Positions 1,394 to 42,468 of a DNA stretch of 47,457 nucleotides are shown one piece after another. The stretch comes from a virus, in IMG/VR virus record IMGVR_UViG_3300002460_000007. One strand, given 5' to 3'. The notes beneath the pieces were generated by a model, which had not been told where the DNA came from, did no database searches, and saw only the letters and a program-made list of their open reading frames with translations. Made by a program: the position numbers and the translations under genes. Within the stretch, counting starts at the first letter, position 1. Each line of letters starts with the position of its first letter.

Positions 1394-1419
1394 AGTGATT
1401 CGCGGGAGTCTTATTAAGG
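1394..1419 (+). promoter_or_regulatory. Promoter-proximal leader box: AGTGATTCGCGGGAGTCTTATTAAGG
   Basis: 19 of the first 20 nt are identical to the minus-strand leader at 30005-30030. Both sit the same 6 nt from their -10. Confidence 0.6.
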
Positions 1420-1550
1420 CACGGCCTATCACTTAGTCGGAGAGAGAATTGCCCAGCTTTGCACAGTTTCTCGCCGACTGTCTACCAAAATAACGCATAC
1501 CGACAGGCGAGTTTACCCTTAGCCCTTACCCTAGCCTTGAGCCGTGAGAT

Positions 1551-1898
1551 TTGCGCGTTTCGGCTGTCAGAGGGTCGCCAGCACGCGCATGTGCGGTCAA
1601 CAGATATGGGGCCGCTGTTGGGGTATGGGCAACAAAAAACGCGCCGTCTGTTGGCGCGTACAATGTGTCCCATGTCATATTGTCTCTAGGGTGTCAACAT
1701 TGTGGATACAACGAGCATGCCTACGCTTTGGACTTAGACCACATTGACCCATCCACTAAGTTTGCTCCGGTCAGTGCGATGGTGGGTAGCTACACCCTCA
1801 ACAGACTAAAAAAAGAGGTGGCAAAATGCACTGTCCTATGTGCAATCTGCCACCGTATTAAAACCTGGGAACCCGAACGGCTGTCCCTAGCGGTCTAG
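1551..1898 (+). CDS. HNH homing endonuclease; true start probably GTG 1665 or TTG 1680
   Basis: CQHC...LDLDHIDP...NRL...CAICHRIK, i.e. CxxC / DH / N / CxxCH, a zinc-type beta-beta-alpha-Me finger. Confidence 0.75.
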   Translation: MRVSAVRGSPARACAVNRYGAAVGVWATKNAPSVGAYNVSHVILSLGCQHCGYNEHAYALDLDHIDPSTKFAPVSAMVGSYTLNRLKKEVAKCTVLCAICHRIKTWEPERLSLAV

Positions 1899-1935
1899 GA
1901 TGCTATCTACGCGCTATCTACTCACTATGCGTTCG

Positions 1936-2286
1936 TTACTTCGCCTGGAGTAGCTTAGTAGCCACCGTTAGGGCATTGGCGCTTACTGTCGCAGGCGAGC
2001 TAGCCGGGGCCTTGTCCGGTAGGTAGAACCGAACGCCGCCTTTTGCGGGTAGACGGACTATCTCGCCCGTGTCAGTCATGGCATCGGTCACGGCCCGAAC
2101 AGCTTGGGTATCGATGCCAAACTCCGCACTAACCAGCTTGTTGAATGACAGATTGCCAGCCCACACAAGCGGGAAATTGCAGTGTACGCCGTTGAATCCC
2201 GTTTGCTTTGCGTTGACCGCAATCAGCTTGAGGATAAACAGACGTATCGCCAGCCCCGTTGTCTTACCCTTGCCTCGTGTTGTCAT
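1936..2286 (-). CDS. Putative winged-helix DNA-binding protein, 116 aa
   Basis: LSFNKLVSAEFGIDTQAVRAVTDAMTDTGEIVRLPAKGG resembles an HTH plus wing. The N-terminal GKGKTTG is P-loop-like. SD aagggaag. Confidence 0.45.
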   Translation of the reverse strand: MTTRGKGKTTGLAIRLFILKLIAVNAKQTGFNGVHCNFPLVWAGNLSFNKLVSAEFGIDTQAVRAVTDAMTDTGEIVRLPAKGGVRFYLPDKAPASSPATVSANALTVATKLLQAK

Positions 2287-2292
2287 TGGAGT

Positions 2293-41460: not shown

Positions 41461-41690
41461 GCGTTCTCCTCTGGTGTGTCAATAAATCCAAGGGTTATAT
41501 CAAAGGGGCCTAGTCTAATACATAATCCCATTTCATCGAAATGGAACAGGTAGTCTTTATCTCCTTCATGGGCATCGAAGAAGAAATAGAATCCTAGCCC
41601 CCAATCATACCAGTAAATTGAAGCTGTGAAGAAAGGTCTGATAGTACTCAAATTATGAGGCAGACGTCTAATCCAGAGTGGCAGTTTCAT
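41448..41690 (-). CDS. Hypothetical protein, 80 aa
   Basis: Overlaps the polA start. Confidence 0.5.
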   Translation of the reverse strand: MKLPLWIRRLPHNLSTIRPFFTASIYWYDWGLGFYFFFDAHEGDKDYLFHFDEMGLCIRLGPFDITLGFIDTPEENAWIP

Positions 41691-41829
41691 TCTCTTGTTC
41701 TCCTAAAACGAACGGATAATCAACTTCCACCGCAGGTAACTCAGTCCATAGCACCCACGGGAACAGAACCACAATCCAAGATTCTAGGTACCGGCGGAAT
41801 TTTCTAGACATAAGGATAGATTCAATCAT
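41668..41829 (-). CDS. Small membrane-like protein, 53 aa
   Basis: SD ggtgaggaaag. Translated codon by codon. Below the track cut-off. Confidence 0.4.
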   Translation of the reverse strand: MIESILMSRKFRRYLESWIVVLFPWVLWTELPAVEVDYPFVLGEQENETATLD

Positions 41830-41935
41830 CTTTCCTCACCCTCCACAGTACGAACAGTTCCATCCCTACCACAGCCACCGTAAGTCCGATGAACACGCCT
41901 GTTAGGAACAGAGATACTTCGGCGATGTCACGCAT
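41822..41935 (-). CDS. Single-TM peptide, 37 aa (track ORF trimmed)
   Basis: Hydrophobic segment SLFLTGVFIGLTVAVVGMELFVLW. Confidence 0.4.
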   Translation of the reverse strand: MRDIAEVSLFLTGVFIGLTVAVVGMELFVLWRVRKDD

Positions 41936-42167
41936 CTCCAAACTCCTCTCCGCAGTGTGGGCAACGGCGAGTTTTTTGAATATGAATCCCATATTCCACA
42001 ACATTGCGGCTCTGATACTCACTTGCAGCTTCTATGGCCTCTAGCTTTGTGTCAAACATTGGAGAATCAAATCCGACCGGGCCAATTCCTTCACTAGATG
42101 CACTTTCATCTGTGAAAGTCCATTGTCCTTCCACTTTACGCACACAAAGGTAATTATCGCTACTCAT
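41928..42167 (-). CDS. Hypothetical protein, 79 aa (track ORF trimmed), C-terminal CPHC
   Basis: SD ggagag. Confidence 0.5.
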   Translation of the reverse strand: MSSDNYLCVRKVEGQWTFTDESASSEGIGPVGFDSPMFDTKLEAIEAASEYQSRNVVEYGIHIQKTRRCPHCGEEFGDA

Positions 42168-42468
42168 GATTCTCTCCTCTCTCCCAACGCTCATACTCTC
42201 GTTGAGCCTCAATTGCGCGGTCTCTTATGTCCGCATACGCATCTCCTTCCCACTCTGACTCCTCGGCTGCCAGAAGTGCGATGTCATAGAGCGCATCGAG
42301 TAGGCCTTCAACAATATCGTCCGCTGTATAAAGGCCCCCGCGCAATTCTGGCTCTATTATACACCCTTCCAGCACTTTTGTCAAGTCCTCTGCGCAGTGG
42401 CAGAATGATGTGGTATGTCCACAGTTGTCGCATTCAACACTCACAGCTTTCTCCCCCCAACTGCTCAT
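42160..42468 (-). CDS. Hypothetical acidic protein; start ATG 42468 or a GTG near 42441
   Basis: CDNCGHTTSFCHC. It contains an internal promoter plus box. Confidence 0.5.
   Translation of the reverse strand: MSSWGEKAVSVECDNCGHTTSFCHCAEDLTKVLEGCIIEPELRGGLYTADDIVEGLLDALYDIALLAAEESEWEGDAYADIRDRAIEAQREYERWERGENHE
42327..42343 (-). promoter_or_regulatory. Conserved downstream box (minus strand): GCGCGGGGGCCTTTATA
   Basis: GGGGGCC starts 16 nt after the -10 at 42356-42361, inside coding sequence. Confidence 0.5.
42356..42384 (-). promoter_or_regulatory. Consensus promoter inside coding sequence: ggacTTGACA-17-TATAAT
   Basis: Perfect hexamers, encoded within codons DLTKVLEGCIIE. Confidence 0.65.

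Follow-up and report, generated by a model that had tools for sequence, protein, structure and literature searches.

A G-rich box behind five promoters of a groundwater phage as a possible ribosome-binding end of a repeated promoter-leader cassette

The IMG/VR virus record IMGVR_UViG_3300002460_000007, a stretch of 47,457 nucleotides (nt) that is called the window below, contains a short G-rich sequence, hereafter the box, that recurs downstream of five of its promoters and raises the question of what such an element does in a phage genome. An initial annotation of this DNA left two readings side by side, a DNA operator or roadblock site and a common 5' RNA element. The latter fits the evidence better; the former is not supported, the site having no symmetry, variable run lengths, no copy away from a promoter and no cognate regulator found. 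The box most likely acts in RNA and not in DNA. The explanation we favour, with a probability of roughly 45%, is that it constitutes the Shine-Dalgarno (SD)-plus-spacer end of a reiterated promoter-leader cassette, analogous to the promoter-early-stem-loop (PeSL) cassettes of T4-type phages and to the start-associated sequences (SASs) of mycobacteriophages, the G-run behaving like an SD sequence and the T/A-rich part like its spacer.

Five copies at one distance from near-consensus promoters

All five copies listed in the initial annotation are present with exactly the sequences given there. GCGGGAGTCTTATTA (1402-1416, + strand) follows promoter P1359 (1359-1387, +), whose -35 element TTGACA occupies 1359-1364 and whose -10 element TATGCT occupies 1382-1387; GCAGGGGGTCTTTATA (3681-3696, +) follows P3638 (3638-3666, +), in front of terS; and GCGGGGGTCTTTATA (19597-19611, +) follows P19555 (19555-19583, +), in front of a tail-region gene for a protein of 426 amino acids (aa). 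On the opposite strand, GCGGGGGTCTTTTATA (30007-30022, read from 30022 to 30007, -) lies behind P30065 (30037-30065, -), a promoter that comes after the nrdJ operon and points towards the end of the late operon, and GCGCGGGGGCCTTTATA (42327-42343, read from 42343 to 42327, -) lies behind P42384 (42356-42384, -), which is internal to a 94-aa open reading frame (ORF). Measured from the -10 element, GCG begins after 13-14 nt, the last G of the run falls at 20-22 nt and ATA at 25-27 nt; with transcription starts inferred from the -10, the box would span approximately +8 to +22 of the transcript and the G-run +9 to +15.

A search of both strands of the window with the 15-mer, allowing up to three mismatches, returned exactly these five sites, compared with a mean of 0.98 matches in shuffled sequence, where none of 100 shuffles reached five. 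A shorter core pattern yielded no additional, promoter-independent copy of the full box in the window. Chance is therefore excluded as the source of five sense-orientation copies at one offset from a strong promoter. No Rfam family matched at any box.

The promoters themselves are strikingly uniform. About 13 in the window match TTGACA-N17-TATAAT at 10-12 of the 12 positions, most of them with GGGRC 5' of the -35 and a TG-type extended -10. The boxed ones (P1359, P3638 and P19555 on the + strand, P30065 and P42384 on the - strand) are of the CTTGACAAA-N15-TATAAT type and match the consensus at 12 of 12 positions, except for P1359 (10 of 12). That the box marks a subclass of otherwise similar promoters, as had been proposed, is borne out: it is lacking at the four promoters for which its absence had been claimed (3359, 14094, 38919 and 39444) and likewise at 43574, 32018, 1256 and 984, which makes five carriers and eight non-carriers. 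Equally correct was the remark that one copy lies inside coding sequence, for the box of P42384 encodes LRGGLYT within the 94-aa ORF, which runs from a GTG at 42444 to 42160 and has a good SD; this ORF is an ORFan, with no homologue but itself among 1.8 billion representatives. The "inverted half" of the box reported for the nrdJ promoter (P32018) exists as the C-rich sequence CCTCCCCCGC (31975-31984, -), identical in the relatives L192 and L193; it is not strictly at the place of the box, however, as it lies somewhat closer to the -10 (6-15 nt after it), and it is outside the box family.

Conservation of the box in related phages

Relatives were taken from a graded series of TerL homologues for which flanking DNA was recovered, and the comparison covers two of the five loci, the terS promoter and P30065. 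All relatives with a TerL identity of at least 71% whose sequence extends far enough upstream retain the box at the terS promoter, namely as GTCGGGGGGCCTTTTATATAACAAATG in L033 (97%), GCGAGGGGTCTTTATAATACCAAATG in L001, L035 and L036 (96%), GCGCGGAGGTCTTTATATAAC in L003 and L037 (90%), CCGAAGGGCCTTATATATG in L077 (72%) and CCGAAAGGGCCTTATATATG in L040 (71%). In L191 (68%) it has faded to CCGACCGAGTATATATAACATG, and in L028, L029, L031, L044 and L045 (58-69%) the same type of promoter is followed by different leaders and no box. The ortholog of P30065 is carried by L192 (~88% nucleotide identity), in which the region reads TATACT-AGAGGTAGTGTAC-GGAGGGGTCTTTATAAGACTCCTC-TTTTCTTATCT. Absence at orthologous promoters, which the initial annotation had named as the finding that would speak against the box, is thus seen only in distant relatives (TerL identity 69% or less), close ones keeping the box at both recoverable orthologous promoters; the box is therefore a young, clade-specific feature. 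Strains with an identical tail-region protein are identical at the boxes and hence uninformative.

The alignment of all distinct copies, paralogous and orthologous (n=11), exhibits peaks of conservation at the -35 (GG.CTTGACAAAc), at the extended -10 and -10 (aAAtGtg.TATAAT) and at the box (gGgGGtCTTTaTA). Copies share only 36-86% identity over the 14 nt that separate the -10 from the box, and the sequence 3' of the box is unconserved; since the box is conserved next to a diverged stretch, it is under a constraint of its own and not merely part of a recently copied block. Within the G-run the variants differ by purine-for-purine substitution and by length: GGGGG and GGGGGG occur beside GGGAG (P1359), GGAGG (L003), GAGGGG (L001), GGAGGGG (L192) and AAAGGG and AAGGG (L040 and L077). 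The G-run varies from 3 to 6 nt and the T-run from 2 to 4 nt, and the ATA 3' of the T-run is invariant save for ATT at P1359.

Wider searches added little. Neither the 426-aa protein nor the amidase nor the helicase retrieved relatives by protein search of IMG/VR, and homologues of the 426-aa protein were unsuitable for comparison, as they belonged to identical strains or else represented recombinant tail domains of unrelated phages devoid of the promoter. A TerL search of species genomes for a prophage or host gave no match. The 21 exact 15-mer matches in IMG/VR all lie in unrelated contexts without promoters and were dismissed as chance, and a pattern combining the promoter with GGTCTTTATA retrieved the known close relatives and two unrelated low-GC contigs only. 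A looser pattern (CTTGACAAA..TATAAT..GGGNCTT) hit at least 80 loci, mostly in unrelated low-GC phages, which were not used, the match being partly forced by the pattern. Some of these loci are worth recording in their own right: L101, L108, L112, L115, L136, L143 and ~40 others from IMG/VR are unrelated phage contigs of 30-38% GC in which a C-run/G-run hairpin comes no more than ~10 nt after CTTGACAAA...TGTATAAT promoters and is itself succeeded by CCTT(T)A(T/C)AT. The arrangement resembles a PeSL-type cassette whose stem-loop is downstream of the -10, the likeness to the box being partly pattern-forced.

The box as a possible ribosome-binding site

Every variant of the G-run contains or mimics the SD core. 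The five leaders pair with a generic anti-SD sequence, which may not be that of the host's 16S rRNA tail, at -6.9 to -10.7 kcal/mol, which is comparable to the real gene SDs of the window with their range of mostly -9 to -14 kcal/mol; one internal gene, 21677, has GGCGGGGGT as its SD. Variation in run length also fits an RNA-level function, because pairing between single strands tolerates it.

Behind P19555, the ATG of ORF 19613-20893 (426 aa) lies 9 nt past the G-run, and box copy 3 is therefore a ribosome-binding site. The first ORF, whichever it is, has its ATG 0-7 nt past the box both here and in six relatives at the terS locus. In L040 and L077 promoter and box are 90% identical and the homology stops exactly at the ATG, which opens two different small ORFs, and at the same locus L191 has a third, different ORF after its box. 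In the window (ATG at 3704), L001 and L033 the start codon of terS is found 15 nt past the G-run, and no other SD precedes it. An SD and a start codon thus stand at the 3' end of the cassette at P19555, P3638 and the terS-locus promoters of six relatives, and not at P1359, P30065 or P42384.

When one genome per species (185,579 bacterial and archaeal genomes) was searched for the promoter plus box (GGGGYCTTTATA), the single match, in the Syntrophorhabdus sp. metagenome-assembled genome MVQQ01000191.1 (L194:3655-3715), turned out to be an ordinary bacterial gene start (GGGGGCCTTTATATG / AAGGGGGCCTTTATATGAAAGTG), otherwise dissimilar to the phage; about one match is expected by chance, and we mention it as an illustration only.

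On this reading, the cassette would consist of GGGRC, TTGACAAAC, a spacer with the extended -10, TATAAT, ~14 variable nt, a purine/G run, YCTTT(T)ATA and often ATG, the box being its 3' end and the U/A-rich YCUUUAUA serving as an unstructured spacer. Where a start codon follows (19613, terS at 3704 and the first ORF of the relatives), the box would form the translation initiation region of the transcript's first gene. Where none follows, at P1359 and P42384, it may dock a 30S subunit at the extreme 5' end and protect the RNA in the manner of a stabilising SD (STAB-SD), or be a mere vestige of the cassette; at P30065 it would have become part of the terminator that ends the leftward nrdJ operon, supplying its 5' arm and loop. 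The copies could stay alike through duplication and exchange of cassettes between loci combined with selection on the ribosome-binding part.

The leaders show signs of such exchange. In the terS promoter of L033, the spacer between -35 and -10 is 88% identical to that of P3638 in the window, whereas the 14 nt directly behind the -10 show 86% identity to P42384 of the window and only 50% to P3638. The leaders of P1359 and P30065 both contain AGTGATTCGCGGG.GTCTT..AAG and are 79-81% identical, which exceeds the identity of P30065 to its own ortholog in L192 (64-71%). The window has a small ORF between P3359 and P3638 that is replaced in L001 and missing from L003, and the ORF 3' of the box differs between L040 and L077; the breakpoints are not all located at cassettes, and no recombination product was seen. 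These observations, from small samples, point to promoter-leader modules being duplicated and exchanged between loci. A separate rearrangement affects terS itself in L033 (L033:150-235; Ga0209431_10044130), where an insertion of ~100-115 nt, with TAAGCT and TAGGCT at its flanks, breaks the frame behind the sixth codon and the terS sequence resumes afterwards; this could be a small mobile insertion or an intron-like element.

Several points weigh against a role in ribosome binding. For three of the five copies in the window, no canonical start codon lies within 15 nt, and for them such a role would follow by analogy with the others; at terS, the distance of 15 nt is long for an SD. An SD alone leaves the near-invariant YCTTTATA across paralogs unexplained, and its being the best-conserved part of the hairpin loop at P30065 and in L192 hints at sequence-specific recognition beyond the SD. 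The constant distance to the -10 would also suit a function at the DNA level or in early elongation. The comparative data come from two of the five loci, the 16S tail used for pairing is a generic one, and the transcription starts are predicted positions.

Copies without a start codon and the terminator at P30065

The leader of P1359 runs ~150-260 nt ahead of an HNH-like ORF (1551-1898) with no start codon nearby. The Pfam HNH match of this ORF (E = 7e-4) is below the curated cut-off, with CxxC...DH...CxxCH motifs visible; a 76-aa ORF at 1459 is not protein-like. The HNH-like ORF (+) overlaps a strong intrinsic terminator on the opposite strand (1639-1659, -; ACGCGCC..GGCGCGT followed by TTTTTGTTG), which closes a leftward operon of small genes (3214-1936) and through which transcripts from P1359 would read in antisense. 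At P42384 the next gene start is ~150 nt downstream of the box, with none nearer. Small peptides initiated from the ATA or ATT of the box were considered and rejected, the frames being short and unconserved between the window and L192.

No ORF follows P30065 either, and here the box has a different setting. Copy 4 forms the 5' arm and loop of an intrinsic terminator (29986-30022, -), in which GCGGGGG (30022-30016) pairs with CUCCCGC (30003-29997) ahead of the U tract UCUUUUUAU. The hairpin has a predicted energy of -15.2 kcal/mol (z = -3.0) in the window and of -15.3 kcal/mol (z = -3.1) in L192, which uses different arms (GGAGGGGUCUU with AAGACUCCUC) and keeps the U tract; its best-conserved part between the two is GGGGTCTTT(T)ATAAG, which is largely loop. 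The terminator marks the junction of the leftward nrdJ operon with the rightward late operon, which ends there (amidase stop at 29987). P30065 fires straight into it, and would therefore yield an RNA of ~45 nt at most.

Both G-run/C-run pairings reported in the initial annotation (3685/3722 and 30016/29997) were found in our folds. The one at 30065 is a conserved intrinsic terminator and not a generic leader hairpin; the copies do not all share a common hairpin. The G-run pairs at varying positions and with varying strength, and several copies lack a partner, most z-scores being -0.7 to -1.5. For P3638 it is GACCCCC (3722-3728), 30 nt away in the terS coding sequence, for P19555 AGACUC and for P42384 AAGGCC, while in L003 a 21-nt insertion has created ACCUCCG and with it a perfect 7-bp stem; the folds of P1359, L040 and L077 offered no convincing partner. 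Pairing in trans, in which box RNAs would bind the C-run in the leader of nrdJ, was likewise rejected, as it amounts to 6-7 bp in different registers in the window and L192, with no covariation.

Alternative explanations

If the box were an operator, a phage or host protein would bind the asymmetric +8 to +22 site and block promoter escape or early elongation, which would give the boxed promoters a common timing. The fixed position is typical for repressors such as LacI at O1, all copies have a single orientation, the flanks diverge around a conserved box, and YCTTTATA is conserved even within a hairpin loop; moreover, with all promoters near consensus, an extra layer of temporal control would be needed. 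Monomeric repressors with asymmetric, one-orientation sites do exist (PMC9283540). We nevertheless regard an operator as unlikely. The site has no dyad or repeat symmetry, indels of 1-2 nt inside it (GGGGG/GGGGGG/GGAGG; TT/TTT/TTTT) would shift the spacing of any two contact patches, there are no copies away from promoters in the window, and scans with Pfam and PHROGs revealed no assignable regulator. The boxed promoters do not form a clean functional class, as they serve an HNH gene, terS, a tail-region gene, a site without an ORF and an internal site in the early region, and the adjacency of start codons in the relatives would go unexplained. A related but even less probable possibility is that the box is a specific recognition site, in leader RNA or in early transcribed DNA, for a putative phage factor that co-regulates this promoter subclass, the ~45-nt RNA of P30065 acting as an abundant decoy or titrator that displays the box in its loop; the near-invariant GGYCUUUAUA, retained even in the terminator loop, would be the signature of such a factor.

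The box might instead be an elongation signal in the nascent RNA or the non-template strand, either loading NusB/NusE like boxA or, through the -10-like TATAAT or TATAAG at ~+19, causing a sigma-dependent or backtracking promoter-proximal pause. We compared GGUCUUUAUA with the boxA consensus of rrn operons and lambda, GCUCUUUAACAA. The two have a UCUUUA core in common, yet they match at 6-7 of 9 positions only and agree worse in P42384 and P1359; UCUUUA itself occurs in two or three copies, with CCUUUA and UCUUAUUA in the others, against the GCUCUUUAACAA-type consensus, from which the host's boxA may differ. The succession of a G/C-rich and an A/U-rich part at a fixed distance from the start is as expected of such a signal, two boxed promoters head operons of ~10 kb, and P3638 and L001 have an exact TATAAT. 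These two, however, are the only copies of 11 with the essential last T of the -10-like hexamer (the A at position 2 is always present), and a sigma-dependent pause was rejected as the principal explanation because the other nine lack it. One boxed promoter runs into a terminator and another heads a short unit, whereas the unboxed P14094 also heads a long late operon, and no Q-, N- or NusG-like gene was found in scans of the window's proteins. Of the explanations weighed here this one seems to us the least probable. Scarcely better are the prospects of simple hitch-hiking, in which the box has no function in most copies, is carried along with duplicated or converted cassettes and looks conserved since the copies are young. 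Its restriction to a shallow clade (TerL identity of at least 71%) and absence from relatives with the same promoter type would be in keeping with this, as would the chimeric leader, the within-genome concerted evolution and the similarity of P1359 and P30065 beyond the box; but the 14 nt before the box are near-random (36-86%) while the box is kept, which calls for selection on the box, and a purine-only pattern of substitution is not neutral.

Comparison with known systems

The nearest described system is the PeSL cassette. PeSL cassettes of T4-type phages combine a near-perfect sigma-70 promoter, a terminating GGGG...CCCC stem-loop and an SD with a start codon at the 3' end, and they flank ORFans and recombine (PMC2839356, PMC4122927). 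The phage cassette likewise has near-perfect sigma-70 promoters (TTGACA-N17-TATAAT) repeated through the genome, with the box on five of ~13, a polyG (and polyC) element, in part of its copies an SD and start codon at the 3' end, variable small ORFs at some flanks, signs of exchange between copies and, at P30065, a G/C stem that looks like an effective terminator. The PeSL stem-loop, however, stops transcription arriving from upstream and is placed before or inside the promoter or immediately ahead of the transcription start, whereas here the G-run would occupy +9 to +15 of the RNA that the cassette itself produces, and in most copies no C-run is close by. Only P30065 and its ortholog in L192 combine a local G/C hairpin and a U tract, and there the hairpin is downstream of the start. 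The five copies here belong to a 47-kb genome that is not T4-like, and there is no sequence homology to PeSLs.

SASs of Cluster K mycobacteriophages contain an SD, are conserved beyond what pairing with rRNA demands and have an unproven function (PMC3203893). Like the box, they are asymmetric, one-orientation repeats of 13-15 nt with an SD core, a few nt before the start codons of unrelated genes. They differ in occurring at many internal gene starts without being tied to promoters, the box being found only at a fixed promoter distance and three of its five copies having no start codon; the sequences are unrelated (GGGATAGGAGCCC versus GCGGGGGTCTTTATA). For the copies without a start codon, the STAB-SD of cry3A in Bacillus thuringiensis offers a precedent, an SD-like sequence near the 5' end holding a 30S subunit that blocks 5' exonuclease (PMC4113751). 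The box, complementary to the 16S rRNA 3' end in its generic rather than host-specific form, could by analogy hold a 30S subunit and shield the 5' end, which would fit copies 1, 4 and 5. The predicted position of the G-run is the same in all copies, two of the five being used for initiation and three not. STAB-SD, by contrast, is a perfect GAAAGGAGG without a conserved spacer, its stabilising effect and the RNase J-type 5' exonuclease have been demonstrated, and two copies of the box are real initiation sites.

Stoperators of Cluster A mycobacteriophages are asymmetric 13-bp sites in one orientation, at which a bound monomeric repressor blocks elongation (PMC9283540). In asymmetry and orientation they correspond to the roadblock that had been envisaged for the box. 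They are, however, of fixed length and number tens of copies across intergenic regions; the box is promoter-proximal only, its G- and T-runs differ by 1-2 nt between copies, and no repressor is known for it.

Genomic context and other leaders

The window represents one complete, circularly permuted phage genome of ~47.3 kb, because its ends repeat each other (direct repeats 21-111 and 47357-47447, 91 nt with ~98% identity). Several aquifer groundwater metagenomes contain near-identical contigs of 46.5-47.6 kb, and GenBank has no annotated phage close to the window at the DNA level. Packaging, head, tail and lysis genes run rightward (3398-29987), among them terS (3704-4132, +), terL (4116-5522, +) and the amidase gene (29214-29987, +); genes for replication and nucleotide metabolism run leftward (47321-30183) and include those for a helicase, a family A DNA polymerase with a UDG domain, several HNH and LAGLIDADG endonucleases and nrdJ (30353-31927, -). 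Pfam and PHROGs scans of the window's proteins detected no phage RNA polymerase, sigma factor, Q/N-type antiterminator, NusG-like protein or RNA-binding regulator.

The genome is a mosaic of endonuclease insertions. The LAGLIDADG homing endonuclease gene 38927-39349 (region 38790-39449, -) has its own 12/12 consensus promoter, P39444, and is absent from L192, which has ~180 nt in its place, and the HNH genes 32674-33195 and 34515-34949 are missing or replaced in that relative. Just upstream of the nrdJ promoter, a tRNA-His gene (32141-32218, -) adjoins an 82-nt match to the Rfam tmRNA model (32223-32304, -), which scores 61.7 bits, above the gathering score, and is not called by ARAGORN; this block looks like an insertion, as it is reduced to ~80 nt in L192.

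Two further classes of leader were noted. The unboxed promoters P3359 and P14094 share a motif at approximately +10 to +20, GGCAAAGATGAGTAATG and GGTAAGAATGATTAG (3388-3415 and 14123-14150 of the window), kept at the orthologs of P3359 (L001:284-310 and L003:1813-1840). The leftward promoters P1256 and P984 are immediately followed by GTGGCCG-type hairpins (1221-1195 and 949-925, -), with which the predicted transcripts would begin, the leader of P984 reading GGCCGCUCCGAAUGGGGCGGC and folding at -25 kcal/mol over 70 nt; such hairpins are typical of 5' stabilising stem-loops. The three classes, with the box, with the GATGAGTAAT-type motif and with 5'-terminal GTGGCCG hairpins, are natural candidates for RNA-level control.

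Implications

The box cassette is real and tidy and probably not a new kind of regulation, but a variant of known phage regulatory cassettes. What it leaves as a puzzle is the near-invariant YCUUUAUA, together with a consensus promoter that feeds a terminator. Should a protein turn out to recognise the box, with an RNA acting as decoy, the regulatory circuit would be a new one. In any case, a phage that relies entirely on consensus host promoters raises the question of how its gene expression is ordered. If the box is indeed the SD-plus-spacer end of the cassette, it would supply a practical annotation rule for transcription units and the starts of their first genes in this clade. It would also mean that compact cassettes joining a promoter to a ribosome-binding site are not peculiar to T4-type phages, and that they are duplicated, exchanged and sometimes re-used as terminators in a small uncultivated phage of groundwater.

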